A stretch of 64,000 nt of DNA, from assembly GCA_051313645.2 (NCBI GenBank), contig JBNRSN020000005.1:123008001-123072000 (forward strand). Reading direction: 5' to 3'. The notes under the pieces were generated by a model. It was given only the letters and a program-made list of their open reading frames with translations, had not been told where the DNA came from and did no database searches. This DNA comes from Centroscyllium fabricii (taxonomy: Eukaryota). Shown here in pieces: positions 1 to 64,000 of the stretch; the first letter of the stretch is position 1, and each line of letters opens with the position of its first letter. Position numbers and translations under genes: made by a program.

Positions 1-1429
1 TTTACATCTCCCTCGCGGCGGCGGTTGGCTCTGCTCGGGCTGGCCCCGGGCAGGTTTCTCAAGATGCTGGACACGCCAGCAGTCGGTATAACTCAAAGAG
101 GAGTCTTCCTTCTCTGTCTACCCCTCTTCAACGCTCAACTGCCTGCCGTACGGTGCGCTGGACCGTGCTGTCTTCCTTGCTAGACCGGGCCCTGTGGTGA
201 GCCGGCCTGCACTTTCGAGCCGATCTGTGACTGTCTGCCTTTCCTTCGTCTGCTAGATTGTCTCGCCGGGCTACGCTGCTCGTTCTGAACTCAGCTTAAC
301 CGCCGAACTGTGTCTCCGTGCTCGTTTAGTTCCTTCAGCACCTCCAGTACATTCGGTAATACTCTGCGATACTCTGCAGATTGCTCAGCAGATTCCGCAT
401 ACAACAGCCCCCTCCGATCCAGCACTACTCAGCTTCAGCAGACTGCAACCGATGCTCAGCAGATTGTGTGGACTCTGTAGTCTTGTTATATTTTGAAACT
501 ATGGGCTTATCTCCCGCCCAAATCGTGATAAGTCTTTTGTACGAATAAATGGCTCGGAAGCCTCTGTTGTCTTGTTAACCTGTTCCGGGATTGCCCGAGA
601 ACGGGCCCAACTATCTGTGAAGTGTTTTTCTTTGTCAGGCAATTATGTTAATGGCGTACCGATGGTTTTGCTGTTAACAAATAATGAAATCTTAAGTCTG
701 GCTAACCGGGTCAGTCGATCGGTTTCTGGCAGTGTCATATTTAAACTTGTTAAAAGGTGTTCCTTATTGTCTGGCTAAACGGGCCAGTCAATCGGTTTCG
801 GGGAGGGCTTGCTTAATCTCACAAGAAGTGTCATTCCTCAGCACCTCCATGTCTGGGCGCTGGCAAGTTTTCGCGGGCTTTTACAAAGCCAATACATAAT
901 GTTGTCTGGTCGGCAGTTAAGTTTATTCAGGAGATGTACTGGAAAGTTCTGGTCGGTTGGTCACAGGGTCTGGTGGCCATCTTAGAGGCCCCTCTCTCTC
1001 TCTTTCAAGAAGCCGCAGCCCTTTTCTGTGTTGCAGCCATTTTGTCTAATAAAATGTTCAAATTAAACTGACTTTTCTCCTGTCGTTCTTGAATCGCGGT
1101 AATTGCGAACTTTTACAAGGATAGTCATTATTGATAAAGTAAGAGATGGGTTCGGGGCCGTAGAGGCAAGTGTGGTGTGCGCGCTGGGGCCCTTGTGCAA
1201 TGCAGGGTCCGCGGTTGATGGCGACGCCCGTGATTCACACGCGGCGGGCCGCGGTGGTGTTTCGGACCGTTGGGTGAGTCTCCGAGAAAGCCCTTGGGAA
1301 GACCGAAGGGCTCTTGGCGCACCAGCGCCCGAATGCTGAAGTGGCCTGGAGTAGTCTGTTGCAGCTGCCAGGACCGCAGAGGTTGATTTTAAGTTGCTAG
1401 TTGCTGCAGCAGCCTGTACGTTTAAAATT

Positions 1430-1895
1430 TTCCTGCACAAAGATGGCGTCGTCACGTGATGGGGCGGGACCACAGCTGCCTGGTTGCGATTTCTCCTATA
1501 CCAAGATGGTGGTGTCATGTGATGGGGCTGGGCCGCTGTTGCCGGGATGCGATTTGCCCCACACAAAGATGGCGGTGTCACGTGATGGGGCGGGGCCATT
1601 GCTGCCGGGATGATCGACGGTGGTGGCATCACGTGATAGGGTGGGGCCTCTGCCGTGGTGATCGACATTGATGATGTCACGTGATGGGGCGGGGCCTCTG
1701 CCGGGCTGCGAGTTGCCCGCATCAAAGATGGCGGCGCCCTGTGTGCCGCTGCTGCCAGGAGGCCCGACGGCGCCCGCGTTTCGCGCCGAAACGCCGAAGA
1801 AGAAGGCCGCGCCTCCAAAAATGGCGGAGCGCGGGGAACGACCGTGATGGGAGACGCCCGCGCCCCCAAAGTTGGCGGAGCGTGGGAAACGACGA
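1430..1895. repeat. Degenerate tandem repeat (about 50-64 bp unit) with AAGATGGCG / GTCACGTGAT / GGGGCGGGG motifs
   Basis: Units visible at about 1439, 1503, 1566, 1628, 1676 and 1725, with partial units at 1818 and 1868. Confidence 0.8.
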
Positions 1896-2803
1896 GGCAA
1901 GGTAGGTCTCAATTGTTCTGAGGACCGCTGTTGGGGGGCGCTAAGTACCTGAGGCCTCTCTGTGGCATGGAAATCACAGGCTGCTGCCGTTTTCCTTGCT
2001 GATTCTGGAGCCGATCGGCAGACCTTCGCAAAATGGCCCTTCTTGCCACATTTGGAGCAGGATGACGACTTTGTTGGGCAGGAGCTTCGTGGATGGCGTT
2101 TTTGGCCACAAAAATGGCATTTAAGAGGCGCTGGCTGTCCAGATGGCGCCGTGGCCGCCGTCGAGGGCACCGAACGCGAGTCCCAAGGCCCAGGGGAAAC
2201 CGTGTGGGAGCCGTGCCCCGTGTACGAATCCAGGCTGCGGAGGGCCCCATCCACTGCATTGGAGAGCTTCACCACCTGATTCAGGGACAAATGATCCTGC
2301 TCGAGCAGGCGGGTGCGAGCTGGGGCCGATCGGATTCCTGCCACGTAGGCATCGCGGACGAGGAGGTCCATATGCTCCTGGGCGTTAACAGGTGCACATT
2401 CACAGCGCAGAGCGAGAGCTTGAAGAGCCTCCAGGTACTCCTCATTCGACTCACCATGCTGTTGACTCCGCGTGGCAAGTAGATGGCGAGCGTAGACGGC
2501 GTTGACTGGCTGGAGGTATCGATCCCTCAGCAGCTCCAACGCTGCATCGTAGTCAGTGGCATTCTTGATGATCGAATATACCCTACCACTGACGCAGGAG
2601 ATCAGGACCCGTCTCCTATGCGCATCGCTGACTCCGGCCACCACCAGAAACGATTCGAAGCAGCTCAGCCAGTGCTCAAAATCGTTCGAAGCGTTCGGTG
2701 CCTGGGGGTGGAGGTCGAGAGTTTTCAGTTTAAGGATCGATTTCCAGTTATCTGATGCAACTGGTTGGTGGCTCTGTTCTTGCTCATCCTCGTGCTGGCT
2801 CAT
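1496..2803 (-). CDS. gag: Gypsy Gag-like protein with two CCHC zinc knuckles, running into a repeat-derived tail
   Basis: ATG at 2803 (MSQHEDEQ). Knuckles CHFCGQKRHPRSSC and CSKCGKKGHFAKVC. The YARHLLATRSQ/LVRDAYVAGIRS segments align by eye with the Gag of the 34537-38571 polyprotein. Confidence 0.8.
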   Translation of the reverse strand: MSQHEDEQEQSHQPVASDNWKSILKLKTLDLHPQAPNASNDFEHWLSCFESFLVVAGVSDAHRRRVLISCVSGRVYSIIKNATDYDAALELLRDRYLQPVNAVYARHLLATRSQQHGESNEEYLEALQALALRCECAPVNAQEHMDLLVRDAYVAGIRSAPARTRLLEQDHLSLNQVVKLSNAVDGALRSLDSYTGHGSHTVSPGPWDSRSVPSTAATAPSGQPAPLKCHFCGQKRHPRSSCPTKSSSCSKCGKKGHFAKVCRSAPESARKTAAACDFHATERPQVLSAPQQRSSEQLRPTLPRRFPRSANFGGAGVSHHGRSPRSAIFGGAAFFFGVSARNAGAVGPPGSSGTQGAAIFDAGNSQPGRGPAPSRDIINVDHHGRGPTLSRDATTVDHPGSNGPAPSRDTAIFVWGKSHPGNSGPAPSHDTTILV

Positions 2804-2827
2804 TGTAAAAATCTTAGCTAATAAAAT

Positions 2828-3057
2828 TGATGCGCAAATCAATTACGCCAGTCTTTGGTGAAGAGTAATTGATGGCTTTTATTAGCTAAGAACTAGACCT
2901 GGTCCGCGATGAGTCCGCCCGGAATGAGAGTCAGGTGGGCGGAGCATCCTCCTTTATACTCATACCTGGAGGCGGGGTCAGCTGGTCCAGGTCCTTACAG
3001 AAAGGAACAGATTTATTAGCACAAACTATATACAATAATAACACAGTGTGAACCACA
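2828..3057 (-). repeat. 5' LTR of element A
   Basis: Plus strand tgatgcgc...gaaccaca. On the minus strand there is TATAAA near 2958 and AATAAA near 2883. Confidence 0.8.
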
Positions 3058-3061
3058 CTAA

Positions 3062-4130
3062 ATGGTTCACCACACACGTCATCACTGGAGATACCCCCAA
3101 AACAGGATTTACAGACAGTGGATGAGCTACCTCAATGTGACTGAGCATCAGTGCCAAAGGAGGCCCAGACTTTTGCGAGAGGCAGTGTGTGAGATCTGCA
3201 CAATGCTGCAGCAAGACCTGGAGCCCAGAGGAGCAGGTGGACACCTCTTACCAGTGGCTGTTAAAGTCACCACCACACTCAACTTTTTTGCTTCAGGCTC
3301 ATTCCAGGGATCAACAGCAGACATCAGTGGCATCTCCCAGGTGGCTGCACACACTTGCATTATGCAGGTAACTGATGCCCTCTTTGCCATCATGCGCAAT
3401 CACATCAACTTCTCCAAGGATCAAGCAAGTGTAACCACACGTGCAGTTGGATTTGCTAATCTGGCAGACTTTCCAAGGGTGCAGGGAGTTGTTGACTGCA
3501 CACATGTGGCCCTTAAGGCACCCCATCACAATTCAGATCTTTTTGTCAACTGCAAGGGCTTCCACTCCCTTAACATGCAGCTGGTGTGTAACCACAATAA
3601 TTAAATTTTGCATGATTGCGCCAAGTACCCTGGCAGTTGCCATAACTCCTTCATCCTGCACCAGTCTAGTGTGCCTCTGCTCTTCAGTCCACCGGACCAA
3701 CATTGCAGATGGTTACTTGGAGACAAGTGCTATCCCCTGAAGATATGACTAATGCCGCCATTGAGGAGGCCAGCCAATGCAGCTGAGGAGCGCTACAACT
3801 CCAGCCACATTTCCACCAGATCCATCATCAAGCAAACCATCGCTTGCTGAAGATGTGATTCAGATGCCTTGATAGATCAGGTGGTGCCCTGCAGTACTCA
3901 GCAGCCAGGGTCTCCAAAATCGTCGTGGTCTGCTGTGCACTTCACAACATGGCACAGCATCGTGGCTTGCAGCTGCCTGGGGTACAAGTGGCTCATCGCA
4001 TAGCCTCCTTAGATGAGGATGAGGAGGAGAAGGAGGAGGAGGAGAGCGACAATGAACAGCTTGTGGAGGCGCATCAACCAGCAGCAGCAGGACGCGAGCC
4101 CGGAATGCAAAGGATGCACTCACCTTGGGC
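3062..4130 (+). pseudogene. Harbinger DDE transposase pseudogene
   Basis: Motifs [35 protein letters not shown] and VVCCALHNMA, plus an acidic tail. Stops and frameshifts are present. Confidence 0.85.
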
Positions 4131-13597: not shown

Positions 13598-14372
13598 GCA
13601 CAGGTGAGTCGCAGAGCACAGGTGAGGAGCAGAGCACAGGTGAGGTGCAGCGCACAGGTGAGGCGCAGAGCACAGGTGAGGAGCAGAGCACAGGTGAGGA
13701 GCAGCGCACAGGTGAGGAGCAGCGCACAGGTGAGGAGCAGCGCACAGGTGAGGAGCAGAGCACAGGTGAGGAGCAGCGCACAGGTGAGGAGCAGCGCACA
13801 GGTGATGAGAAGCGCACAGGTGAGGAGCACAGGTGAGGAACAGCACACAGGTGAGGAGCACAGGTGAGGAACAGCACACAGGTGAGGAGCACAGGTGTAG
13901 TGCAGAGCACAGGTGAGGACCAGAGCACAGGTGAGGAACAGCACACAGGTGAGGAGCAGTGCACAGCTGAGGAACAGAGCACAGGTGAGGAGCACAGGTG
14001 AGGAGCACAGGTGAGAAGCACAGGTGAGGAGCACAGGTGTAGTGCAGAGCACAGGTGAGGAGCACAGGTGTAGTGCAGAGCACAGTTGAGGAGCACAGGT
14101 GTAGTGCAGAGCACAGGTGAGGACCAGAGCACAGGTGAGGAGCACAGGTGTAGTGCAGAGCACAGGTGAGGCCCAGAGCACAGGTGAGGAGCACAGGTGT
14201 AGTGCAGAGCACAGGTGAGGAGCACAGGTGTAGTGCAGAGCACAGGTGAGGACCAGAGCACAGGTGAGGAGCACAGGTGTAGTGCAGAGCACAGGTGAGG
14301 AGCACAGGTGTAGTGCAGAGCACAGGTGAGGACCAGAGCACAGGTGAGGACCAGAGCACAGGTGAGGAACAG
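13598..14372. repeat. Minisatellite of 13-18 bp variant units with core CACAGGTGAGGAG
   Basis: Dozens of caggtgag/caggtgtag units. It lies within what looks like a degenerate Harbinger ORF2 region (RTGGG-like remnant near 12960-13040). Confidence 0.9.
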
Positions 14373-15427
14373 CAAGTGCTGTTGCCAGAAGAGATGTGGA
14401 AACCTGTCGATCAGCATCAAGGACCCTGCCCTTTGAGAAATGCAGCAGTGCAATGATACCAGCAGAGTTGGCACACACCTATTGCTAGTCAATAGTAAAG
14501 GAGATGAAATAGCTGGCCTTGCTGAGGTTTCATACATCAGTAGGCATTTTGCTGACAGTGTAGATGAGGCCTATGCTAGATCGGAAGGAGGCACAGCCAA
14601 AAATATGAAGTAACCCTGTTTGACACCAACAACACCAACCCTCTGGTGCAGGTTGTCTGTAGGTCAGCAGTTGGCTTTCTACTGGCCTGCAGCCATGGAG
14701 CCAGTTCCCCATTGGTAGTTCCCAAGTAGGTGTGCCAGGGTTGCAGATATGACATTAAGACAGGTGCGGCCAATTTAGCTGTAGTGCGTGTTAATCTCCC
14801 TATCCTGCTTTTTGTGCCACTTAAACCTTGAAATACTGTGATTAGGGTAACAATGACTTGTCAAAGGGCACAGCGTTTGGCATAGTTTCCAGTTCGATGC
14901 TGGTCGGCCCCCAAGAGGCGGCATGAACGTTGATATTCTGGGAAACACTTTACAGATGCCTTTTCCTTGAAAGATCTTCATGTTCTGCTAAACTCTTGCA
15001 AAGGATTTCTATGCAATCAGTTGCTCTGCAATATTGGTGACAGTGATTCTGCTCTTTCTTTCATTACATTAACATTTCCAGCAAAATCTGGTTCAGAAAA
15101 CAAAGGAAAAGAATCAGGAATCACTGGCTGAAAATAAAAATGAAATCCATAAATGTAACAGCTGCAGAATAAATAAGCTCTTATATTTATGCACTAAACA
15201 TATGTTGCAATCTTAAAAAACAAATATCCATTAGCTGCAAAATAAAAAAAAACACAATGCATTAAATGGCTAAACATCAGCTAAACAATTTGAAAAATAA
15301 TCATTAAAAACATGTTTCCTCCTGTCCTTTTAAACTGGAACTTAGAGCAGTTTCACCTGGATTTCGTGGGCAGAAGACCTCCTGGGAGGAGTGTGCTGCA
15401 TGCATCCTTCACTCAGCTCCCATTCAT

Positions 15428-20928: not shown

Positions 20929-23900
20929 CAGGTAGATACAGTGGGACAAGAGGTAACTAAATACAGCACAGTATAACAGTGGGGGTAAACAGTATTACAG
21001 GTTTACCACATTCACCCCTTGTTTTAAAATTGAGTCCAGCGGGGTGAAGTGGTTTTTGAAACATAGAAGATAGGAGCAGGAGTAGGCCATTCGGCCCTTC
21101 GCGCCTGCTCCGCCATTTTTTTGATGAGATCCTGGCTGATCATCTAAACCAAGCACCCTGTCCCTGCCTTGTCCCCATATCCCTCAATCCCTATCGAGCC
21201 TGCACCGACACATATCCCACCCTATCCCCGTAACCCCACATATTCAATCCCCCTAACACTAAGGGTGAATTTATCCTGGCCAATCAACCTAACCCGCACA
21301 TCTTTGGACTGTGAGAGGAAACCGGAGCACCCGGAGGAAACCCACGCAGACACAGGGAGAATGTGCAAACTCCACACAGTTAGTCACCCGAGGCTGGATT
21401 TGAACTCGGGTCTCCAGTGCTGTGAGGCAACAGTGCTAACCACTATGCCACTCTGCCGGGAGTAGCATAAGAAAGTCTATTGGGCGGTCTGGTCTCCCTC
21501 CGCGACCGGCTGTTGTGCGGGATACTCAGGCAAGATGGTCTTCATCATCGGTGGCATGACAACAGTCTCCTGGTGGTCATGCATCGAAGGATCCCGGGAC
21601 GCCGGCATACCATCTACAGGGGCTAGAGAAAGGGAGGGTAACACAGGTGCATCGAGAGTAACGGTGGGGGGGAGGTGGGATAGGTGGTGGGAAATGGTGG
21701 TCTCAGGGGCACCTGAGGGTGCAAAGTCTCGAATGGAGACCGTGTCCTCCCGCCTGTCGGGGAATGCCATGTAGGCGTGGAGGAGCAGTACCCTGTCGAC
21801 CAGGGGGTCCGGCTTATGGCTCCTCACGTGCCTCCGAAGTAGGATGGCCCCTGGTGACATCAGCCATGGTGGTAGCGAGGTCCCCAAGGTGGACTTCCTA
21901 GGGAAGGCAAACATCTTCTTGTGAAGAGTAGCGTTAGTTGCAGTACAAAGCAGCGACCTAATGGAATGGAGTGCATCAGGGAGGACCTCCTGCCAGCGGG
22001 AGATTGGGAGGCCCCTAGACCTCAGGGCCAGTAGAACGGCCTTCCAGACTGTCCCGTTCTCCCTCTCAACCTGCCCATTCCCCCGGGCGTTGTAGGTGGT
22101 GGTCCTGCTCATTGCAACTCCTTTCGCAAGCAGGTACTGGCGCAGCTCATCACTCATGAACGAGGAGCCCCGATCACTATGTATGTAGTTGGGGAAGCCG
22201 AACATGGTGAAGATGCTGTGCAGGCACTTGATGACCGTGGCCGAGGTCATGTCTGGGCAAGGGATGGCAAAGGGGAAACGTGAGTACTCACCAATGATGG
22301 TGAAAAAGTACACGTTGCGGTCGGTGGAGGGGAGGGGCCCTTTGAAGTCGACACTCAGGCGCTCAAAGGGGCGGGCGGCCTTTATCAGGTTAGCTTTGTC
22401 TGGCCTGTAGAAGTGCGGTTTGCACTCGGCGCAGACTTGGCAGTTCCTGGTAACGGTCCGGACATCCCCAACGGAGTAAGGCAGGTGGCGGGACTTGACA
22501 AAGTGGAACAACCTGGTGACTCCTGGGTGACAGAGGTCATTGTGGAGAGATTGTAGTCTATCCACTTGTGCGTTGGCACAGGTTCCACGGGATAGAGCAT
22601 CCGGAGGCTCATTGAGTTTACCGGGCCGGTACAAGATGTCGTAATTGTAGGTGGACAGTTCGATCCTCCACCTCAGGATCTTGTCATTTTTAATCTTGCC
22701 CCGCTGTTTATTATTAAACATAAAAGCCACTGAACACTGGTCAGTGAGCAGAGTGAATCTTCTACCAGCCAGGTAATGCCTCCAGTGCTGCATCGCTTCC
22801 ACGAAGGCCTGGGCTTCTTTTTCCACAGAGGAATATCTGATTTCAGGGCCTTGAAGGGTACAGGAATAGAAGGCCACCGGTCTCCCCGCCTGATTAAGGG
22901 TAGCAGCCAGAGCGAAGTCAGAGGCATCGCTTTCCACCTGGAACGGGGTGGATTCATCCACGGGCTTGCATGGTTGCCTTCGCAATGTCTGACATAATTC
23001 GATCGAAGGCTACGCGAGCCTCATCCGCCAGGGGGAAAGAGGTACTTTTGATGAGGGGGCGAGCTTTGTCTGCATAATTAGGGACCCACTGGGCGTAATA
23101 CGAGAAAAAGCCCAGGCATCTTTTCAGGGCCTTGAGACTGTGGGGGAGGGGAAGTTCACTGAGGGGGCGCATGCGTTCAGGGTCTGGACCGATGACCCCA
23201 TTTTCCATGACACATCCCAGGTTAGCGAGGCGGGTTGTGCGGAAAACGCATTTCTCCTTGTTGTATGTGAGGTTAAGGAGCTGGGCTGTTTGGAGAAATT
23301 TAGCCAAATTGGCATCATGGTCCTGCAGGCCATGGCTGCAGATAGTGACATTGTCTAAGTAGGGAAAAGTAGCCAGCAGCTCATTTTGATCCACCATTCG
23401 GTCCATCTCCCGCTGGAAGACTGATACCCCATTGGTGACGCCGAAGGGGACCCTGAGGAAATGGTAAAGACGGCCGTTTGCTTCAACGGCAGTGTACTGG
23501 CGGTCTTCGGGGTGAATGGGGAGCTGGTGATACAGAGACTTTAAGTCGATCATGGAGAATACCCGGTACTACGCAATCTAGTTGACCATGTCAGATATGC
23601 AAGGAAGTGGGTATGCGTCCAGCTGCATATACCGGTTTATGGTTTGGCTGTAGTCAATGACCAGGTGGTGTTTCTCACCAGTCTTAATGACTACAACTTG
23701 GGCTCTCCAGGGGCTGTTATTAGCCTCAATGATCCCCTCCCTCAGGAGCCGCTGAACCTCAGATTTAATGAAAAATCTATCCCCCGCACTGTAGCGCCTG
23801 CTTTTAATAGCTATGGGCTTGCAGTCCAGGGTGAGATTAGCGAACAGCGGGGGAGGGGCGACCTTAAGAATCGAGAGGCTGCAAACGGTGCGTGGCGGGT

Positions 23901-25509
23901 GGCTTAAAACTGCTGGCTGCAAACAATGAGGGGGGGAGGGCTAGCCCGAGCAGAACGGCAGCGCAGAGGTTGTGGAAGGACAAAGAGTTTAAAATTACTA
24001 TAAACCGTGCCCCGCACTAACAATGTAACGATGCAGTAGCCACCGACATCCACTGTTTGAGACTTAGAGTCCAGGGAGATCCGCTGGCGTGCCGGAAGGA
24101 ACGAGGGTGAAAGCCTCCATACATGTGTCGGGGTGAATAAAGCTTTCAGTGCTCCCTGAGTCAAAAAGGCAGTTTGTGTTGTGTCCGTTTACCTGGATGT
24201 CCATCGTGGACCTGGCGAGCTGGTGAGGCCTGGACTGATCCAGGGTAATGGAGGCCAGTTGAGGCAGTAAAAAATCGGGGTCCTCAGGTGTGGAAGCGGG
24301 GGAAGCGGGCGCGGACGCGGACGCGGTCGGCGAATTCCATGAATCACACGCGTCTGGGGGAGATCCAATATGGCCGCCCCCTAGATCCCCATGCAGCCGT
24401 CCAAGATGGCCGCTCGACCGGACCACATGCGGCGTTGCTGGGGCTAGGGGAGGGTTCTGCATTGCAAACACTGGCATAGTGCCCCTTCTTTTTGCAGCTA
24501 GAGCACGTTGCATCTTTCGCCGGGCAGCACTGCATGGGGTGCTTAGGTTGGCCACAGAAATAGCACTTCTGCGCATGGGACACCGCTGCAGACGTTAGCG
24601 GGGGCAGCGCGCCGCTGGGGGGCGATCCTACCATTCAAGATGACTGCGCCCGCGCCATCCATGAGGTGGCCGCCTGGTCCGATGAGTAGGACTCCATATT
24701 CCTGTGCGCCACGTCCAGCGAGAGCGCGAGGGCTGAGGCTTTTTTTTAAATCGAGGTCACTCTGCTCGAGCAGCCTCTGACGGGTGTTGCTCGATTTGAT
24801 ACCCACAATGAAGGCATCGCGTATCAGGTCCTCCACGCACTCCTGGGCTGTTACCGGCATGCCGCTGCAGGCTCGTCCGAGTATTCGCAACGCCTGAAGG
24901 TAGTCCGCTGTAGATTTACCGGTCTGTTGTCTGCGGCATAGCAGGAGGTGTCTAGTGTAGACCTCGTTAACCGGGGTAGCGAACTGATCTTTAAGGAGTC
25001 TAAGGGCGTCCTCGTAAGAGGTCTTGTCTTCGATCAGCGTGTAGATATGATGGCTTACCCGGGATTGCAGGACCGTCAGCTTCTGTTCATCCGAGGCAAC
25101 GGTGGCACTGGAGGCTGCTAAAAAGAGTTCAAAGCACTTCAGCCAGTGCGCAAACCTTCGCGGTGCATCCACCGCCTGCGGGTCTAACTCCAGGCGATCG
25201 GGTCTTAATATTTTATCCATCGCTAAAACAATTTTTGTTAATAAAATTGATGCACAATCAATTACAGCTAATCGACAGAATTAGGTAATCAAGGCTTTTA
25301 TTAACAAAAGAACTGAAGTACAGGTCTCAACACTATCTGGTCCTGGAATGTCAAGGGTCAGCAGGGCTGCCACCTTTATACCACAGCCTGTGGGTGGAGC
25401 CTGGGGGTGGAGCCGCCAGAGACATCCCAGGTAGATACAGTGGGACAAGAGGTAACTATATACAGCACAGTATAACAGTGGTGGTAAACAGTATTACTGG
25501 TTTACCACA
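20929..25509 (-). mobile_element. Gypsy element B: degenerate gag-pol with 5' LTR 25248-25509 and truncated 3' LTR 20929-21010
   Basis: Gag starts at 25220. Protease LFDSGS, RT FPYLDNV, RNase H ESDASD, and integrase HNDLCH..CQVC / VDFKG / HSDRG / QVERE. PPT aaggggtgaa at 21011-21020. Multiple frameshifts. Confidence 0.95.
21060..21460 (-). mobile_element. Full-length HE1/V-SINE inserted in the 3' region of element B
   Basis: tRNA head, V-domain and CR1-type tail in reverse orientation. Confidence 0.85.
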
Positions 25510-25609
25510 CCCTTATCTGTGCCTTTATCACCTCCAGACTGGCCTGGGGTCAAATATCATAAGTGCTAATAAGTGAGCCGGTACTGCCAATGGACGCATG
25601 CCTCAGCAT

Positions 25610-30124: not shown

Positions 30125-30770
30125 TGCCATGATCGATTTTCCCATCCTCCCTGCAGTCCTACTCCTCATCCATACAGGTAGCAAGTACCTCGTACTTGTT
30201 GGACGAGTTCCAGGGCTGAGGCTCCTCCATCAGTACATCCTGGGTCCCTATACCTTCCTGACTCGCAGTCACACCCGCCTGTCCCTGACCACTGACGAAC
30301 TCTAAAGCGCTACTTAACCTAAAGGGTGTAACTGCCTCCTGGAACAAAGTGTCCAGGTAACTCTCCCCTCCCTGATGCCTCGCAATGTCTGCAGCTCGTA
30401 TTCCAGCTCAACAATTCTGAGCCGAAGTTCCTCACGTTGCAGAGACTTACTACAGATGTGGTTGCTCGGGATCACGATGCTCTCCACAGACTCCCACATG
30501 CTGCAGTTACGACACACCACCTGCCCTGCCATCTCTAACCTGGTTTGATTTATTAATTAATTAGTTAAAGCTTTTATTCAATCGATATTTTAGTTTTATT
30601 GTTAGATTATTTTATCTAGTTTAAGTTATTAATTTAATAAGTACAAAAAGTTAGTTTCTCAACTATTAATGTAACCCTCTTCCCTAACTTAGAGAGCAAA
30701 AAAAATTGTAATACTCACCAACCAATCACCTACCTGCTCCCCTGTGACATCACTCTGATGTTTGTTGTTG
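30125..30770 (-). mobile_element. CR1 5' region (5' UTR and ORF1 N-terminus)
   Basis: MAGQVVCRNCSMWE...HICSK..LRLRIVELEYELQTL, a zinc finger plus coiled coil, followed by SNKYEVL. Confidence 0.75.
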
Positions 30771-30789
30771 TTTTTGCCTCAGATCCTCA

Positions 30790-33700
30790 CCACTACCGCT
30801 GCTTTAATTCAGGTCCGCTCTCGGGCCGCTCTCTATCCTCTCTCCACTGCCACTGCTTTAATTCGGGTCTGCTCTTGGGCTGTTCTTTATCCTCTCGCCG
30901 CTGCCGCTGCTTTAATTCAGGTCCGCTCTTGGGCAGCACTTTATACTTTCATTGCTGCCGCTGCTTTAATTCAGGTCTGCTCTCGGGCCGCTCTTTATCC
31001 TCTCGCTGCTGTCGCTGCTTTAATTCAGGTCTACTCTCGGGCCGCTCTTTATCCTCTCGCTGCTGTCGCTGCTTTAATTCAGGTCCGCTCTTGGGCCGCT
31101 CTTTATCCTCTCTCCACTGTTGCTGCTTTAATTCAGGTCCGCTCTCGGGCCACTCTTTATCCTCTCTCCACTGTCGCTGCTTTAATTCAAGTCCGCTCTC
31201 GGGCCGCTCATTATCCTCTCTCCACTGTCGCTGCTTTAATTCAGGTCTACTCTCGGGCCGCTCTTTATCCTTTCTCCACTGTCGCTGCTTTAATTCAAGT
31301 CTACTCTCGGGCTGCTCTTTAGCCTCTCGCCACTGCTTTAATTCAGGTCCACTCTTGGGCCGCTCTTTATCCTCTCGCCGCTGCCGCTGCTTTAATTTAG
31401 GTCCGCTCTCAGGCCGCTCTTTATCCTCTCTCCACTCTCACTGCTTTAATTAAGGTCCACTCTCGGGCCGCTCTTTATCCTCTTGCCGCTGCCACTGCTT
31501 TAATTCAGGTCCGCTCTAGGACCGCTCTTTATCGTCTCTCTGCTGTCACTGCTTTAATTCAGGTCCGCTGTTAGGCCGCTCTTTATCCTCTCGCCGCTAC
31601 CGCTGCTTTAATTTAGGTCCGCTCTCAGGCCGCTCTTTATCGTCTCTCCACTATCACTGCTTTAATTAAGGTCCGCTCTCGGGCCGCTCTTTATCCTCTC
31701 GCCGCTGCCGCTGCTTTAATTCAGGTCCGCTCTAGGACCGCTCTTTATCTTCTCTCTGCTGTCACTGTTTTAATTCAGGTCTACTCTCGGGCCGCTCTTT
31801 ATCCTCTCGCCGCTGCCGCTGCTTTAATTCAGGTCAACTCTCGGGCCGCTCTTTATCCTCTCGCCGCTGCCGCTGCTTTAATTCAGGTCTACTCTCGGGC
31901 CGCTCTTTATCCTCTCGTCACTGCCGTTGCTTTAATTCAGGTCCGCTCTTGGGCCGCTCTTTATCCTCTCGCCGCTGCTTTAATTCAGGTCCACTCTCGG
32001 GCCACTCTTTATCCTCTCGCCGCTGCCGCTGCTTTAATTCAGGTCCGCTCTAGGACCGCCCTTTATCCTCTCTCCACTGCCGCTGCTTTAATTCAAGTCC
32101 GCTCTCGGGCTACTCTTTATCCTCTCGCCGCTGCCGCTGCTTTAATTCAAGTCCACTCTCGGGCTGCTCTTTATCCTCTCGCCGCTGCTTTAATTCAGGT
32201 CCGCTCTTTATCCTCTCGCCGCTGCCACTGCCGCTGCTTTAATTCAGGTCCGCTCTTTAACCTCTCGCCGCTGCCGCTGCCGCTGCTTTAATTCAGGTCC
32301 ACTCTTTATCCTCTCGCTGCTGCCGCTGCCGCTGCTTTAATTCAGGTCCGCTCTCGGGCCGCTCTTTATCCTCTCGCTGCTGCCGCTGCCGCTGCTTTAA
32401 TTCAGGTCCACTCTTGGGCCGCTCTTTATCCTCTCGCCGCTGCCGCTGCTTTAATTCAGGTCCACTCTTTATCCTCTCGCTGCTGCCGCTGCCGCTGCTT
32501 TAATTCAGGTCCGCTCTCGGGCCGCTCTTTATCCTCTCGCCGCTGCTTTAATTCAGGTCCACTCTCGGATCACTCTTTATCCTCTCGCCGCTGCCGCTGC
32601 TGCTGCTTTAATTCAGGTCCACTCTCGGGCCACTCTTTATCCTCTCTCCGCTGCCGCTGCTTTAATTCAGGTCCACTCTCGGGCCGCTCTTTATCCTCTC
32701 GCCGCTGCCGCTGCTTTAATTCAGGTCCACTCTCGGACCACTCTTTATCCTCTCGCCGCTGCCGCTGCTTTAATTCAGGTCCACTCTCGGGCCACTCTTT
32801 ATCCTCTCTCCGCTGCCGCTGCTTTAATTCAGGTCCGCTCTCAGGCCGCTCTTTAGCCTCTCGCCGCTGCTTTAATTCAGGTCTACTCTCGGGCCGCTCT
32901 TTATCCTCTCGCCGCTGCCGCTGCTTTAATTCAGGTCCACTCTTGGGCCGCTCTTTATCCTCTTGCCGCTGCCGCTGCTTTAATTCAGGTCCGCTCTAGG
33001 ACCGCTCTTTATCGTCTCTCTGCTGTCACTGCTTTAATTCAGGTCCGCTCTCAGGCTACTCTTTATCCTCTCGCCGCTGCCGCTGCTTTAATTCAAGTCC
33101 ACTCTCGGGCCGCTCTTTATCCTCTTGCCACTGCCGCTGCTTTAATTCAGGTCCGCTCTCAGGCTACTCTTTATCCTCTCGCCGCTGCCGCTGCTTTAAT
33201 TTAGGTCCACTCTCGGGCCACTCTTTATCCACTCTCCGCTGCCGCTGCTTTAATTCAAGTTCACTCTCGGACCGCTCTTTATCCACTCTCCGCTGCCGCT
33301 GCTTTAATTCAGGTCCACTCTCGGGCCGCTCTTTATCCTCTCGCTGCTGCCGCTGCCGCTGCTTTAATTCAGGTCCACTCTTGGGCCGCTCTTTATCCTC
33401 TCGCCGCTGCCGCTGCTTTAATTCAGGTCCACTCTTTATCCTCTCGCTGCTGCCGCTGCCGCTGCCACTGCTTTAATTCAGGTCCGCTCTCGGGCCGCTC
33501 TTCATCCTCTCGCCGCTGCTTTAATTCAGGTCCGCTCTCGGGCCGCTCTTTATCCTCTCGCCGCTGCCGCTGCTGCTGCTGCTGCTTTAATTCAGGTCCA
33601 CTCTCGGGCCACTCTTTATCCTCTCTCCGCTGCCGCTGCTTTAATTCAGGTCCACTCTCGGGCCGCTCTTTATCCTCTCGCTGCTGCCGCTGCCGCTGCT

Positions 33701-34158
33701 TTAATTCAGGTCCACTCTTGGGCCGCTCTTTATTCTCTCGCCGCTGCCGCTGCTTTAATTCAGGTCCACTCTTGGGCCGCTCTTTACCCTCTCGCCACTG
33801 CCGCTGCTTTAATTCAGGTCCACTCTTTATCCTCTCGCTGCTGCCGCTGCCGCTGCTTTAATTCAGGTCCGCTCTCGGGCCGCTCTTCATCCTCTCGCCG
33901 CTGCTTTAATTCAGGTCCGCTCTCGGGCTGCTCTTTATCCTCTCTCCGCTGCCGCTGCTGCTGCTTTAATTCAGGTCCACTCTCGGGCCACTCTTTATCC
34001 TCTCTCCACTGCCGCTGCTTTAATTCAGGTCCACTCTCGGACCACTCTTTATCCTCTCTCCACTGTCACTGCTTTAATTCAGGTCCGCTCTCGGGCCGCT
34101 CTTTAGCCTCTCGCCGCTGCTTTAATTCAGGTCTACTCTCAGACCGCTCTTTATCCTC
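30790..34158. repeat. Satellite array, about 54-bp unit (gctttaattcaggtccgctctcgggccgctctttatcctctcgccgctgccgct), left part
   Basis: About 60 tandem units with +/-6-bp gccgct slippage variants. Confidence 0.95.
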
Positions 34159-37100
34159 TGTAACCGTCAATAACGTCTTCGGAGTCGAATAGTAGGTTAT
34201 AATAATCAGGCTTTTATTAACTTCGTTGGAGATACACAACCGAGCTGACTGTCCCCAGAATGGCGCGGGGGATGGGGACAGTCCTTTATGTACCTCCTCC
34301 GGCGGGGGAGGAGTCATGGGCGGTGCCAGGTATCATACAGGTGTTACATGGTATTACAGTGCTATACAGGTGTTACATGGTATTACAGTGATATACAGTT
34401 TATCACATTCACCCCTTCTTTAAAAACTAAAGTACGGTGGGGTGAACAACTCGCGGGGGGGTACAAAAAGGGAAAAGAAAAACAACTAATTACACTGTGC
34501 TAAATAACGAAATATATACAATTAACGTTCTTTTGACTATATGTTCAGTCTTTCAGGCGGTTTCGTCGTCCGCGCTGATCTTCGTAGCGCTGGTGGTGCC
34601 TGTGGTGTTCGTTGTCGTTGAGTGGCTCGCCGTGCTGGCAGTGCCTGTGGTGTTCGTTGTCGTGGGGTGGCTGGTTGCGTCGTTTGTTCCTTTTCTGCTG
34701 GTTGGCCGGTGGTGGTTATGTCACTTCCGGGTGGCGGTGATGCCCTTATTTCGACAGCAGGGGGCGCGCTCTCTCTTTCGTCCTCTGGCTCTGGGGGGAG
34801 CGCATTGTGGATCCAGGCTTGGGGCTGGGTCGTGCTGCGCGCAGGTGCCTTGTGGACATACTGGGGTACTGGGCCCACGTGGCGGAGCTCGTACTTCGGC
34901 TTCGGTGGCTCGGGGGGGGTCACTGGGGTTTTTGGGAGCTCGGGCTGCCTGGCTGGGCTGGTTTTGGGGATCCCTGCTGGGGCTAGGTCCTTTATGGACA
35001 CGGTGTCCTCCCTCCCGTTGGGGTACGCTATGTACGCGTACTGGGGATTGGCGTGCAGGAGGTGGACCCGTTCGACTAGGGGGTCTGCTTTGTGTCCCCT
35101 CACATGCTTCCGCAGCAGAACCGGTCCCGGAGATAGCAGCCACGATGGTAGCGAGGTCCCGGAAGCTGACTTCCTGGGGAAGGCAAAAAGTCTTTCGTGA
35201 GGGGTGGTGTTAGTGGCAGTACACAATAGGGACCGGATAGAGTGGAGTGCTTCAGGGAGAACGTCCTGCCATCGGGTGACTGGGAGGTCTTTTGACTTTA
35301 GGGCTAACTGGATGGCCTTCCAAACCGTGGCGTTCTCTCTCTCTACCTGCCCGTTCCCCCGGGGGTTGTAGCTGGTGGTCCTGCTGGTTGCAATACCTTT
35401 CGCCAGCAGGTACTGACGCAGCTCGTCGCTCATAAAAGAGGCCCCCCGGTCACTGTGGATATAGTTCGGGTACCCGAACAGGGAGAAGATGCTACCGAGG
35501 GCTTTGATAACAGTGGCGGAGGTCATGTCCTGGCAGGGGATGGCGAAAGGGAAACGGGAGTACTCATCTATAACGTTGAGGAAATAGACGTTCCTGTTGG
35601 CTGAGGGAAGGGGCCCTTTAAAATCGACACTGAGTCGTTCAAAGGGGCGAGTGGCCTTGATTAGGTGCGCCCGGTCTGGCCGGTAGAAGTGCGGCTTGCA
35701 CTCCGCGCAGACCTGGCAGTTGCTAGTCATGGTCTTGACTTCTTCGATGGAGTAGGGGAGGTTGCGGGACTTCACGAAGTGAACCAACCTAGTGACCCCC
35801 GGGTGGCAGAGGTCGTTGTGAAGGGTTTGGAGACGGTCAGCCTGTGCGCTGGCACAGGTACCGCGGGATAGGGCATCTGGGGGTTCGTTAAATTTCCCGG
35901 GCCGATACAAAATATCATAATTGAACGCTGATAGTTCAATTCTCCACCTTAATATTTTGTCGTTCTTAATCTTACCCCGCTCTTTGTTGTTGAACATAAA
36001 AGCGACTGAGCGTTGGTCAGTCAACAGGGTAAAACGCTTTCCGGCCAGGTAGTGCTTCCAGTGCCGCACTGCTTCAACAATTGCTTGGGCCTCCTTTTCG
36101 ATTGAGGAATGGCGGGTTTCTGGGCCTTGGAGGGTACGTGAAAAGAAGGCCACGGGTCTGCCCGCCTGGTTAAGGGTGGCGGCCAGTGCAAAGTCAGATG
36201 CATCACTTTCCACTTGGAATGGGACGGACTCATCCACAGCGTGCATCGTGGCTTTGGCTATGTCCTTTTTTATTCCGCAGAATGCCGAGTTGGCTTCTGC
36301 AGAAAGTGGGAAAGAGGTTGATTTTAATAGTGGGCGAGCTTTGTCCGCATAATTGGGGACCCACTGGGCATAATAAGCAAAAAATCCCAAAATCCGTTTA
36401 AGAGATTTGGGGGAGTGGGGGAGGGGAAGCTCCATGAGGGGGCGCATGCGGTCCGGGTCTGGACCGATGACTCCATTTTCCACCACGTTGCCGAGGATGG
36501 CGAGGCGACCGGTGTTAAACACACATTTCTCCTTATTATACGTGAGGTTCAGGGTTTTGGCGGTGTGGAGAAATTTTTGGAGATTGGCGTCATGGTCCTG
36601 CTGGTCATGGCCGCAGATGGTCACATTATCGAGGTACGGGAAGGTCGCTCGCAGCCTGTACCGATCGACCATTCGGTCCATCTCCCTTTGGAAGACCGAG
36701 ACCCCGTTCGTGACTCCGAACGGCACCCTAAGGAAGTGGTAGAGGCGGCCGTCAGCCTCGAAAGCAGTATAGAGACGGTCCTGTGAGCGGATGGGGAGCT
36801 GGTGATAAGCAGATTTTAAATCGATGGTTGAGAACACTTTAAATTGGGCGATTTGGTTTACCATGTCCGCTATCCGGGGGAGGGGGTAGGCATCTAGTTG
36901 GGTGAACCGGTTTATGGTCTGGCTGTAATCCACTACCATCCTATTCTTTTCCCCGGTTTTCACCACGACTACCTGTGCTCTCCAGGGGCTGTTGCTAGCC
37001 TCTATGACCCCTTCTTTTAGGAGGCGCTGCACCTCAGATTTTATAAATGCCCTGTCCCCAGCACTGTAGCGCCTACTCTTGGTGGCGACGGGCTTACAGT

Positions 37101-38839
37101 CTGGGGTGAGGTTAGCAAAAAGGGATGGAGGGGTAACCTTAAGGGTTGAGAGACCGCAGGTAGTATACTGGGGGTTCCGCTTTGAGTCGCGGTTTGTGAC
37201 CGTGAGGGGAGGGAGGGGTCCACCGAAAGCCATCGTAACGCTCTGAAGGTGGCACTGGAAATCCAGTCCCAGGAGTAGGGGGGCGCAGAGCTGCGGCAGC
37301 ACGTAAAAACTAAACTTGTTAAAGATAGCCCCCTTTACGTTTAGCGTTACACTACAGCGCCCGGTGACATCAGCGGATTCCGATTTTGACGCCATAGATA
37401 TTCTCTGGCGCGCAGGGATTACTTTAAGGGAGAGGCGCTTAACAGTATTCTGATGTACAAAACTTACTGTGCTCCCGCTGTCGAACAGGCACACCACCTC
37501 TTCACCGTTAACTTCCACCGGCATCATTGATCTCCCCAGTGGCTGGATTGTCTTCTGATCTAGGCTCATAGATGCTAGTACTGGGTCCTCCCCAAAATCT
37601 TGATCCGGAGAGTAGTTATCTCGGTCTGGATAGTAGTGATTTTGATCCGGGGAGTAGTCCTCCAGGTCAGTTTCCTGGGATGGCTGCCTCCATGTGCTCT
37701 GCTGTTGGGTGGGGGATGGGTGCTGCTGCAGCCTTGAGCTTGAGTGCTGCTGGTTGGGGGATGGGCGAGGCCGATTTTGCAGCTCCCTTGTTCCACAGGC
37801 AGCACTGTCCAGTCTTGGTTTAACATATGGGCCTTTGCAGACCTTTGCATAGTGCCCCTTTTTGTCGCACTTGGAGCAGATTGCTTCTCTGGCGGGGCAG
37901 CTACGTCTTTGATGCTGTGGTTGTCCACAGAAGTAACATTTCGCTTTAGCGTGGGCCGCTGTGAGAAGTTCCTCTGACGGTCTCTGCCCCCGCACTGTCC
38001 AAGATTGCGGGGCTGGGCCCGTATAGTTAGTAGAATACGATGATAAATCTGTAGAGGCGCTGTCTAGCGCGTGTCCCAAATCGACAGTGGCCTGTAAGTC
38101 CTGGCCATTTTGTTCTAATAGTCTTTGCCTAGCATAGTCCGATTTTAGGCCTGTTACATAGGCATCCCTGATGAGACTCTCCATATGTACTAGGGCCGTT
38201 TGTGCTCTGCAGTCACAGTCCCGTGCCAGGGTTCTGAGGGCTCTTAGGAACTGCACACTTGATTCGTTGTCCTGCTGTTTTCGGGTGGCCAGTATGTGTC
38301 TCGCGTGGACTCTGTTTGGCGCCCGATTGTATTCCCCGTCGAGGGTCCTGAGGGCTTCGTTAAATGATGAGGCGTCCACGATCATCGAGTATACTTGCGG
38401 GCCCACCCGGGCGTGGAGGAGCCGTCGTTTTTGCTCCTCGGTCATTATGTCCGTTGCGTTGGCTCTAATGTATCCTTCCAATACATTTCGCCAGTGTGAG
38501 AAGGCATTGGATGCTCCAGGAGATCGGGGGTCAACCTCGAACACTGATGGTTTCAACATTGCAGTATCCATTTCAAGAAGTTAATAAAATTGTAACCGTC
38601 AATAACGTCTTCGGAGTCGAATAGTAGGTTATAATAATCAGGCTTTTATTAACTTCGTTGGAGATACACAACCGAGCTGACTGTCCCCAGAATGGCGCGG
38701 GGGATGGGGACAGTCCTTTATGTACCTCCTCCGGCGGGGGAGGAGTCATGGGCGGTGCCAGGTATCATACAGGTGTTACATGGTATTACAGTGCTATACA
38801 GGTGTTACATGGTATTACAGTGATATACAGTTTATCACA
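34159..38839 (-). mobile_element. Intact Gypsy LTR retrotransposon C
   Basis: 249-bp LTRs (34159-34407 and 38591-38839) are identical by eye, with TG..CA ends and a TCCTC TSD (34154-34158, 38840-38844). PPT gaaggggtgaa and a single ORF. Confidence 0.97.
34537..38571 (-). CDS. gag-pol: Gag-Pol polyprotein, 1344 aa (Gag with two CCHC knuckles, PR, RT, RNase H, IN)
   Basis: CYFCGQPQHQRRSC/CSKCDKKGHYAKVC, LFDSGS, FPYLDNV, ESDASD, HNDLCH..CQVC, VDFKG, HSDRG and QVERE. No stops. Confidence 0.97.
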   Translation of the reverse strand: MDTAMLKPSVFEVDPRSPGASNAFSHWRNVLEGYIRANATDIMTEEQKRRLLHARVGPQVYSMIVDASSFNEALRTLDGEYNRAPNRVHARHILATRKQQDNESSVQFLRALRTLARDCDCRAQTALVHMESLIRDAYVTGLKSDYARQRLLEQNGQDLQATVDLGHALDSASTDLSSYSTNYTGPAPQSWTVRGQRPSEELLTAAHAKAKCYFCGQPQHQRRSCPAREAICSKCDKKGHYAKVCKGPYVKPRLDSAACGTRELQNRPRPSPNQQHSSSRLQQHPSPTQQQSTWRQPSQETDLEDYSPDQNHYYPDRDNYSPDQDFGEDPVLASMSLDQKTIQPLGRSMMPVEVNGEEVVCLFDSGSTVSFVHQNTVKRLSLKVIPARQRISMASKSESADVTGRCSVTLNVKGAIFNKFSFYVLPQLCAPLLLGLDFQCHLQSVTMAFGGPLPPLTVTNRDSKRNPQYTTCGLSTLKVTPPSLFANLTPDCKPVATKSRRYSAGDRAFIKSEVQRLLKEGVIEASNSPWRAQVVVVKTGEKNRMVVDYSQTINRFTQLDAYPLPRIADMVNQIAQFKVFSTIDLKSAYHQLPIRSQDRLYTAFEADGRLYHFLRVPFGVTNGVSVFQREMDRMVDRYRLRATFPYLDNVTICGHDQQDHDANLQKFLHTAKTLNLTYNKEKCVFNTGRLAILGNVVENGVIGPDPDRMRPLMELPLPHSPKSLKRILGFFAYYAQWVPNYADKARPLLKSTSFPLSAEANSAFCGIKKDIAKATMHAVDESVPFQVESDASDFALAATLNQAGRPVAFFSRTLQGPETRHSSIEKEAQAIVEAVRHWKHYLAGKRFTLLTDQRSVAFMFNNKERGKIKNDKILRWRIELSAFNYDILYRPGKFNEPPDALSRGTCASAQADRLQTLHNDLCHPGVTRLVHFVKSRNLPYSIEEVKTMTSNCQVCAECKPHFYRPDRAHLIKATRPFERLSVDFKGPLPSANRNVYFLNVIDEYSRFPFAIPCQDMTSATVIKALGSIFSLFGYPNYIHSDRGASFMSDELRQYLLAKGIATSRTTSYNPRGNGQVERENATVWKAIQLALKSKDLPVTRWQDVLPEALHSIRSLLCTATNTTPHERLFAFPRKSASGTSLPSWLLSPGPVLLRKHVRGHKADPLVERVHLLHANPQYAYIAYPNGREDTVSIKDLAPAGIPKTSPARQPELPKTPVTPPEPPKPKYELRHVGPVPQYVHKAPARSTTQPQAWIHNALPPEPEDERESAPPAVEIRASPPPGSDITTTGQPAEKEQTTQPATPRQRTPQALPARRATQRQRTPQAPPALRRSARTTKPPERLNI

Positions 38840-39610
38840 TCCTCTCTCCACTGTCGCTGCTTTAATTCAAGTCCGCTCTCGGGCCGCTCTTTATCCTCTC
38901 GCCGCTGCCGCTGCTTTAATTCAGGTCCACTCTTGGGCCGCTCTTTATCCTCTTGCCGCTGCCGCTGCTTTAATTCAGGTCCGCTCTAGGACCGCTCTTT
39001 ATCGTCTCTCTGCTGTCACTGCTTTAATTCAGGTCCGCTCTCAGGCTACTCTTTATCCTCTCGCCGCTGCCGCTGCTTTAATTCAAGTCCACTCTCGGGC
39101 CGTTCTTTATCCTCTTGCCACTGCCGCTGCTTTAATTCAGGTCCGCTCTCGGGCCGCTCTTTATCCACTCTCCGCTGCCGCTGCTTTAATTCAAGTCCAC
39201 TTTCGGACCGCTCTTTATCGACTCTCCGCTGCCGCTGCTTTAATTCAGGTCCACTCTCGGGCCGCTCTTTATCCACTCTCCGCTGCCGCTGCCGCTGCTT
39301 TAATTCAGGTCCGCTCTCGGGCCGCTCTTTATCCTCTCGCCACTGCCGCTGCTTTAATTCAGGTCCGTTCTCGGGCCACTCTTTATCCTCTCGCCGCTGC
39401 TTTAATTCAGGTCCGCTCTTGGGCCGCTCTTTATCCTCTCGCCGCTGCTTTAATTCAGGTCCACTCTCGGGCCGCTCTTTATCCTCTCGCCACTGCCGCT
39501 GCTTTAATTCAGGTCCACTCTCTGGCCGCTCTTTATCCTCTCTCCACTGCCACTGCTTTAATTCAGGTCCGCTCTCGGGCCGCTCTTTATCCTCTCGCCG
39601 CTGCCGCTTC
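38840..39610. repeat. Satellite array, right part (same 54-bp unit)
   Basis: The array resumes in register after the TSD. Confidence 0.95.
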
Positions 39611-61576: not shown

Positions 61577-64000
61577 ATGTCTTCAAGAAACCAAGCTTCT
61601 CGATCACAAGGACTTGGCCAGAACTGCAGGCACAGACTAACTCTACCGGAGTTCTGGGAGCAACGCCCGGCAGCGTGGTTCATGTGTATAGAGACCAGCT
61701 GCCGCACACATGGCATCCAGGGGGATGACTGCTACGACCTGGTCTTCTCAGCTCTACCGCAATCTACGATAGATCGGATGTGGTCGAAGCTTCAGCGCGT
61801 GCCCGCGGCAGGCAGGTATGAGTTCCTCAAGGCCGCGCTACTTAAAAAATTTACCCCCTCCCAATTCGAGCGCGACTGCCAGCTCCTTAACCTCCCCGAA
61901 CTCGGGGACGCAGACCCATCGGAACTTTGGGACCAAATGCAAGCGCTCACCACCGATCCCGCCTCCCTGTTCCGCACCATATTCCTCCTTAAACTACCCC
62001 GCTCCATCAGACCGGCCCTGGCGGCCCTCTGCCACCGGAGCGGGGACGAGCTAGCCGAGGAAGCCGACAGGCTCATGGCGGCCGAGCGCACCTGCTCCAC
62101 CACGTGCGACCTCACTGCCGCAGCAATCGAGCACAACCACTCGCCCCCCAGGTCCAACCCAACGCCTGAACCCAGGCCCCCGCGCCCTCCCAGGCTACCG
62201 CGTCCACCAAGCACCGGCTGGTGCTACTACCACACGCGGTTCGACACTAAAGCGCACCGCTGCGTACAGCCACGGGCCGGCTCAGCCCCCACTATGTCTG
62301 TAGGACACACCGGAGCACTGCTCTACGTCACAGACAGCGGCACAGGCCTCCGGTTCCTCTGCGACACAGGCGCACAGCACAGCATCGTGCCGGCCTCCCC
62401 AGCAGAAGCCAAAAAAGGCACCCGGGGCCCGCCACTCGCAGCGGCCAACGGCTCAGATATTAAAACGTATGGCACCCGCAAGCTCACAATCGAGCTTGCC
62501 GGCCACACGTACCACTGGGAGTTTGTCACGGCCCAGGTCACTTCACCCCTCCTCGGGGCAGATTTCCTCTGCGCCCACGGCCTCCTGGTCGACATGACCC
62601 GGCGCCGCCTGGTCGACATTCACAACATGTCGACCATCCCATGCTCCACAGGGCCCGCACTCCTGGCCCACGCGGCGGCACAATGCCGCGCCCAGAACTC
62701 TGACGCATACGGCACGCTCCTCGCTGAGTTCCCAACCCTTACCAATACCACCTTCACCGCCCGCACGGCCAAACACGGGGTGGAACACTTTATCACCACC
62801 TCCGGCCCTCCCATGCATGCCCACGGCCGCAGACTGGACCCGGCCAAGCTGGAGATTGCGCGCACTGAGTTCCGCACCATGGAACAACTCGGCATAATCC
62901 GCCGCTCCAACAGGCCCTGGGCCTCTCCCCTCCACATCGCTCCCAAGCCGGGCGGAGGCTGGCGCCCCTGCGGCGACTACCGCCACCTCAACAACGCCAC
63001 TACCCCGGATAGGTACCCCGTACCCCACATCCAGGATTTCTCCGCCAGGCTAGCGGGCTGCACGATCTTCTCCAAGATCGACCTGGTGCGTGGCTACCAC
63101 CAGGTCCCGGTGCACCCGGCGGATGTCCCCAAGACAGCCGTAATTACCCCCTTCGGCCTCTTCGAGTTCCTCAGGATGCCCTTTGGACTCAAAAACGCGG
63201 CCCAGGCCTTTCAGCGCCTAATGGACTCGGTCCTACGGGACTTGCAGTTCATTTTTGTCTACTTAGACGACATCCTCGTGGCCAGCGCCTCACCCCAGGA
63301 GCACCTCCTGCACCTCAGGACCCTGTTCCAGCGCCTCACCGAACACGGCCTCATATTAAGCCCCTCCAAATGCAAATTCGGCCTCGAGACCATAGACTTC
63401 CTCGGGCACCGCATTTCCAAAACCGGGGCCATACCCCTGCCCTCCAAGGTGCAGGCAGTTCAGGAATTCCCCCGCCCGCACTCCATTAAGGGCCTGCAGG
63501 AATTCCTCGGGATGGTTAATTTCTATAACCGCTTCATCCCAGGTGCAGCCGCTCTCATGGCTCCCCTATACCAGGCCACACGCGGGCAGTCTGGCAAAAC
63601 TGCGGTCGAGTGGACAGCCGACGCCGCCACCACCTTTACTGCAACCAAAACCGCCCTGGCCAACGCCACCCTCCTAGCCCACCCCAGGCCCAACGCCAGA
63701 GTGGCCCTCACCACTGACGCCTCCGACCACGCTGTCAGGGCCGTTTTCGAACAGTGGACCGGCAACTCTTTGCAGCCCCTAGCCTTTTTCAGCCGGCAAC
63801 TTCGGCCCCCGGAGGTTAAGTACAGCGCCTTCGACAGGGAGCTCCTCGCTCTCTACCTCGCAGTGTGCCATTTTCGCTTCCTCCTGGAGGGCCGTCCCTT
63901 CACAGCTTTCGTCGATCATAAGCCGCTCATTTTTGCAATGGCTAAGATCGCCGAACCCTGGTCGGCCAGGCAGCAGCGCCAACTCGCAGCCGTGTCGGAG
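61577..64000 (+). CDS. gag-pol: Gag-Pol, 3'-incomplete (Gag, PR, RT, RNase H)
   Basis: My translation from ATG 61577 gives [56 protein letters not shown] and [10 protein letters not shown]. It is absent from the ORF track, presumably because there is no stop in the window. Confidence 0.85.

Follow-up and report, generated by a model that had tools for sequence, protein, structure and literature searches.

Analysis of a 64,000-nt stretch of the Centroscyllium fabricii genome (hereafter the window) raised the question of how the retrotransposon designated element A primes its reverse transcription. The element lies on the minus strand and runs from the 5′ LTR (3074 to 2828) through one base (2827) and the primer-binding site (2826 to 2812) to the gag start codon at 2803. 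The ends of the LTR were set by the 5′/3′ LTR pairs of 10 other copies of the family. Neither hallmark of tRNA priming, a TGG start and a match to a tRNA 3′ end (the latter sought with one pattern, see below), is found: as the first-pass annotation had stated, no TGG follows the LTR in the sequence. The single base 2827 and the end of the arm at 2812 likewise bear out its placement of the arm one nucleotide outside the LTR and of the gag ATG shortly after the arm. The copy breaks off near 1119, so that pol and the 3′ LTR are missing, and an LTR match is absent over the next 10 kb beyond the break (L061). We regard element A with high confidence as a truncated Ty3/Gypsy element whose primer-binding site pairs with its own LTR over 15 nt, and its clade as likely to prime with a capped 5′ RNA fragment of 48–50 nt; this reading is drawn from sequence comparison. 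The features are collected in Table 1. The LTR is adjoined by the remnant of a broken DDE_Tnp_4 transposase (window 3062–3900, plus strand; Pfam E 1.5e-5), which we take to be of Harbinger type.

Table 1. Observed and predicted features of element A (window coordinates)
Feature	Position	Strand	Basis
5′ LTR, 247 bp, TG...CA	2828..3074	-	5′/3′ LTR pairs of 10 family copies
TATA-like box	2953..2958	-	Sequence; equal spacing to initiator in other families
Initiator-like CATTC	2922..2926	-	Motif 33 nt downstream of TATA; clustering of read-through ends
Probable transcript start and primer 5′ end	2925-2926	-	Initiator motif, read-through ends
Putative primer, about 48 nt from the capped RNA 5′ end	2878..2925	-	Bounded by two junction footprints
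LTR arm; AATAAA at 2883-2878, invariant G at 2886	2877..2891	-	Sequence, pairing
Probable cut site between 2878 and 2877, then conserved (A/G)CC	2874..2878	-	Peak of junction starts at 2877
Inner R/U5 hairpin, 2865-2873 paired with 2838-2846; stem mostly 8 bp	2838..2873	-	Folding, copies
Putative 2-nt overhang after the CA of the LTR	2826..2827	-	11/11 fold-back products read both nt; one leaves right after
Primer-binding site complementary to LTR arm	2812..2826	-	Exact 15-bp match
gag and linker	1119..2803	-	Copy breaks off near 1119

The primer-binding site is, as first reported, the exact reverse complement of the LTR arm; the pairing ends at 2811/2892 on one side and at 2827/2876 on the other. 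The inner repeat, described as a hairpin of nine pairs, is exact over 9 bp in this copy, but the ninth pair is nearly private to it. Because T is present at 2873 in 27 of the 29 printed family copies (read from the listing), the inner stem of the family is 8 bp. RNA folding of the leader gave −37.5 kcal/mol (z −3.3), a value equalled by none of 200 shuffles, and the fold predicted by a pseudoknot-free method is a nested hairpin. Chance and a quirk specific to this copy were considered as sources of the duplex and were rejected on the basis of the shuffled folds and the genome-wide pattern count. A comparison with Rfam yielded three weak matches to miRNA hairpins, far below threshold.

A tRNA primer was sought with two patterns. 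The 3′-end pattern (T-arm plus site) gave 15 matches, and none of the 12 that were fetched is a tRNA. The anticodon-arm pattern with the 8-nt core retrieved tRNA-Ile(AAT) genes, four of which match the site over 8–9 nt. In the part of the tRNA set covered by these patterns, the match to a host tRNA or tRNA fragment that would have refuted the first-pass reading did not turn up: no tRNA 3′ end matched, and among tRNAs sharing the 8-nt core tRNA-Ile(AAT) matches over 8–9 nt only. Priming by one half of tRNA-Ile has a precedent in the proposal made for the Bianca copia elements, and the anticodon loop of the host tRNA-Ile(AAT) does resemble the primer-binding site over 8 nt, or 9 nt in one variant gene. 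The match to the own LTR, however, is longer (15 nt) and covaries, so that, with the tRNAs sharing the 8-nt core as comparison, the best match is not the 5′ half of a tRNA. In the relatives, too, the primer sites track the own LTR and not one tRNA, and none of the 11 fold-back products described below reads into a tRNA. We consider priming by a half tRNA-Ile highly improbable. A variant tRNA-Ile(AAT) was observed at L380:1470-1543, in which the anticodon loop and the following GCC resemble the end of the arm over 9 nt, in these families only. A tandem array of tRNA-Ile-like units, one every 2.57 kb and with more than 70 listed, is located at G000:C823:25.67-25.92 Mb.

The complementarity extends far beyond this copy. 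The pattern of the 8-bp core has 77,861 matches in the C. fabricii genome, compared with 31 for the control, and at all 30 loci found by this core the pairing reaches at least 11 bp with letters that are specific to the family. An arm variant with G in place of T has 10,674 matches; among 30 of its loci, 26 have C as the partner base, three have T and one has A. A search by Pol alone gave 80 metagenome loci, of which 32 include sequence ahead of gag. The leaders of 23 of these 32 pair over 11–18 bp, with shuffle means of about 6, and the remaining nine, some of them decayed and some poorly anchored, have no long arm. In 16 leaders chosen from those that have arms, the own partners pair over 13.4 bp on average and swapped partners over 4.5 bp. 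The arms are thus complementary and change together. Two near-identical copies in another host (L114 and L115) differ by one compensated pair between their arms, as would follow from a primer site that is copied anew from the primer in each cycle. The fixed features of 30 leaders include the distance to CA, two A-U pairs close to the end of the LTR and, in most cases, the (A/G)CC that follows the arm. The G-C pair at duplex position 10 (window 2886 and 2817) is invariant in all 30, whereas its neighbours vary, and possibly determines the cut.

The polyadenylation hexamer, which the first-pass annotation had stressed as the key feature, turned out not to be conserved. AATAAA lies within the arm in the families of the window, and AATAAA or ATTAAA overlaps the arm in nine of the 16 picked metagenome leaders; such overlap would be expected if the duplex served only to mask the 5′ poly(A) signal or to control translation while another primer was used. 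The other seven leaders have no hexamer in the arm, however, and two of them carry it in the loop. The arm also keeps a fixed distance from the LTR end, and masking leaves unexplained both the DNA ends at the arm edge and the read-through into R that are described below. A duplex with such a regulatory role alone appears very improbable to us.

Element A had been presented as an independent instance of the structure seen in element C. This cannot be maintained: elements A, B and C represent related families of one clade, and A is for this reason not phylogenetically independent of C. Gag of family A is 39% identical to that of element C and Pol 75–80%; family A copies match the element C polyprotein along Pol. 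This polyprotein, encoded in the window, contains protease, reverse transcriptase, RNase H and integrase in the Ty3/Gypsy order, and the best solved relative is Ty3. The Ty3/Gypsy hallmarks TG...CA LTRs, polypurine tract and 5-bp target duplications are present. Named homologues occur in sharks and rays (about 80%), in a sea anemone (65%) and in Trichuris (60%); no relative was found in the viral contigs searched. Of 122 stored proteins, 95 have the reverse transcriptase motif YxDN and 24 have YxDD; in P0001 (window 34537–38580, minus strand) and homologues it reads YLDN. Element C itself (34159–38840) has identical LTRs and a 5-bp duplication, sits within a tandem repeat, and its arms pair over 13 bp. 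Element B (20929–25511) is a broken copy with arms pairing over 14 bp. The gag of family A starts about 20 codons earlier than in most sister families (window 2740–2803), and this extension is common to all printed copies. The window further contains a more distant reverse transcriptase-like stretch (62792–63934, 30% identical to element C) and long minisatellite arrays of 54-bp and 18-bp units at 30678–34000 and 13600–14400.

If the LTR transcript supplies the primer, its 5′ end should be traceable. A class of aberrant junctions was found in which the LTR end is followed by the primer site and then by the reverse complement of the upstream R. In family A there are 116 such read-through junctions compared with 1,317 normal leaders, and three other pattern groups contain 69, 124 and 167; all sets were picked by patterns that contain the arm. 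The position of the initiator was fixed from its motif in normal copies and lies 49 nt before the arm end in family A and 51–54 nt elsewhere. Of the 116 family A junctions, 90 were fetched and seven duplicates dropped, which left 83 distinct ones: 47 extend no further than the initiator, 14 stop within U3 and 22 reach the LTR start or pass it. Around the initiator, 12 ends fall at −1 to +1, 31 at −25 to −2 and five at +2 to +25 (p 0.002); the corresponding numbers for 203 junctions pooled from four groups are 25, 61 and 14 (p 5e-6). In fam1 (62 junctions) no peak is seen at the initiator, only the drop past it (p 0.03). Since genomic DNA has no end at the initiator, the template of the junctions ending there was most likely an RNA whose 5′ end lies at this point. 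The base after the initiator ends is C in 13 of 20 cases, compared with 23 of 61 elsewhere, a modest excess (p 0.03). Other reverse transcriptases are established to add C when copying a cap, and the excess is what such cap copying would give. A start at the arm with a primer of about 15 nt, identical to the situation in Tf1, is compatible with the data at hand, in which the start site is read indirectly. It is nevertheless highly improbable, as the TATA-like box of element A lies 67 nt before the arm and the read-through ends extend up to the initiator and peak there. A search for polyadenylated retrocopies of family A returned no match, and four contig runs compared with the leader gave neither start nor end.

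The 3′ end of the putative primer is marked by a second footprint. At several loci the minus-strand U5 stops at the 3′ edge of the arm, folds back and continues with U5, two bases and the arm. A search made without the primer side recovered 11 such products, which share one junction and may represent fewer events, with at least four sequence variants distinguished by eye. In all 11 the minus-strand U5 ends at the arm edge and both extra bases are then read; 10 continue into the own arm and R, and one leaves after the two bases. The nine products examined have 5-bp target duplications; lone LTRs of 255–272 bp with an inverted U5 piece at the putative cut site and a 5-bp target duplication each were observed at L320, L323, L326, L342, L346, L349, L368, L369 and L371. 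A windowed search aimed at truncated LTRs yielded 22 hits in family A, from which 14 junctions were counted. Five of them, including two neighbours that may stem from a single event, start at −1, two at −2, two at −3, none at −4 and five over +1 to +7. Given chance matches of A, these starts fit a cut at AAUAAA^AGCC together with a 2-nt overhang. The overhang would be mirrored at the 3′ ends of the elements, where two nucleotides lie between the polypurine tract and TG, and the relative L126 is without exactly the first pair of the duplex. At 30 fam1 loci the junction starts spread over −1 to +7 with no true junction before −1, and landing sites are concentrated between −1 and the LTR end, 19 to 4 (hand count, p 0.002). 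At L448, L451, L452, L459 and L475 an LTR-like CCACA end is joined into R/U5 of another copy, possibly through autointegration. Two further pattern counts (963 matches; 245 compared with 37 for the control) were left out, the second as too loose.

Both footprints fit a capped 5′ fragment of 48–50 nt as the primer, at the level of sequence comparison. They also bear on a reading in which the 3′ copy of R primes itself, the RNA 3′ end being trimmed at the arm and extended on the primer site while the 5′ end stays intact. Equal complementarity and covariation would be expected in that case, and in 11 of 69 fam1 junctions the sequence crosses U3 and the polypurine tract and enters the internal region (hand count). 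Junctions that reach the LTR start or the internal region can also be explained by annealing to an existing LTR, a process described for Tf1. Under priming from the 3′ R, minus strong-stop DNA should extend to the cap and the initiator should form no boundary, whereas the observed DNA ends at the arm edge and the read-through ends fall sharply past the initiator. This reading is therefore very unlikely.

The suggestion that an LTR segment primes independently of tRNA is supported by the covariation and the junction footprints, and we propose the following course of events for the 5′ fragment. Transcription would begin at the initiator, some 49 nt ahead of the arm end, as the motifs and junction ends suggest. 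The RNA would then be cut at the 3′ edge of the arm, most likely at AAUAAA^AGCC judging from the junction starts; by analogy with Tf1, the RNase H domain of the element itself is the likely cutter. Reverse transcriptase would extend the cut end over the two nucleotides and U5 and halt at the cut about 52 nt on. The strong-stop DNA would be transferred to the 3′ R via the short stretch between the cut and the poly(A) site only. Plus-strand synthesis would copy the primer and so remake the primer site. Because there is no modified base to stop synthesis, the plus strand would often continue towards the cap and leave the read-through junctions that were found. In the families with the hexamer in the arm, the duplex may bring a second benefit by masking the 5′ poly(A) signal.

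No description of priming in this clade was found in the literature searched, which excluded most subscription papers, Repbase and GyDB. The complementarity is real and clade-wide, and the form of self-priming that it points to is probably new. About 78,000 leaders of the clade can be recognised in one vertebrate genome, and it has relatives in rays, a sea anemone and a nematode; tRNA-free priming may therefore be common in animals, and annotation tools that seek a tRNA match may miss it. The aberrant insertions can be used as fossils of reverse-transcription intermediates, from which start site, primer and cut site are read without bench work, and this reading yields base-level predictions that are easily tested.

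The clade may be Cigr-1, an animal Ty3/Gypsy clade likened here by description only: the layout of Cigr-1, with an LTR of about 245 bp and one ORF, fits. Cigr-1 is placed under Mag in the supplement of PMC6238403. The available text of PMC6317226 predicts self-priming for the plant TAR copia elements (Houba, Osr-1) and for Tcn1 from LTR complementarity of at least 10 bp located 0–5 bp after the LTR; the logic is the same as in element A, but the lineages and hosts are others and the case is one of prediction only. The comparison also drew on PMC3601003 and PMC6934838. The closest likeness is to Tf1/Tf2 of Schizosaccharomyces pombe, Tj1 and the Tf1/sushi group, in which, according to the accessible text of PMC7175516, PMC4600332, PMC11042837 and bioRxiv 2022.12.06.519325, a primer site adjoining the LTR base-pairs with RNA of the element itself, the primer is released by a cut and the primer site is copied into the cDNA at its 3′ end. 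Among the systems compared in these sources, self-priming has experimental proof in Tf1 only. There the primer site is paired to the first 11 nt, and the cut by RNase H falls between bases 11 and 12 (PMC7175516), about half of the cDNA retains a single-stranded copy of the primer site (PMC11042837), and elements of the group fold into a pretzel and usually carry a chromodomain (bioRxiv 2022.12.06.519325). Element A shares the primer site complementary to its own LTR transcript, and its clade probably the cut. It differs in two features of the Tf1/sushi group: the paired segment is probably not the very 5′ end of the RNA, since the probable start lies about 35 nt before the arm, inside R, and no chromodomain was found at the integrase end, with no Pfam match in element C or three relatives and none listed for 120 homologues. 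Tf1 uses the first 11 nt in a pretzel of three duplexes; the clade would have a primer of 48–50 nt, and the fold predicted for it by the pseudoknot-free method is a nested hairpin. Element A appears to work like Tf1 but to lack these two features of its group. On balance we favour, with moderate confidence, a widespread chromodomain-free clade of animal Gypsy elements that evolved self-priming apart from Tf1/sushi, using a capped RNA of about 50 nt that would be cut at the conserved AAA^AGCC, stay attached, and be recopied so often that about 8% of the family A leaders are read-through products; with recopying that frequent, the genome itself would record the start site and the cut site.
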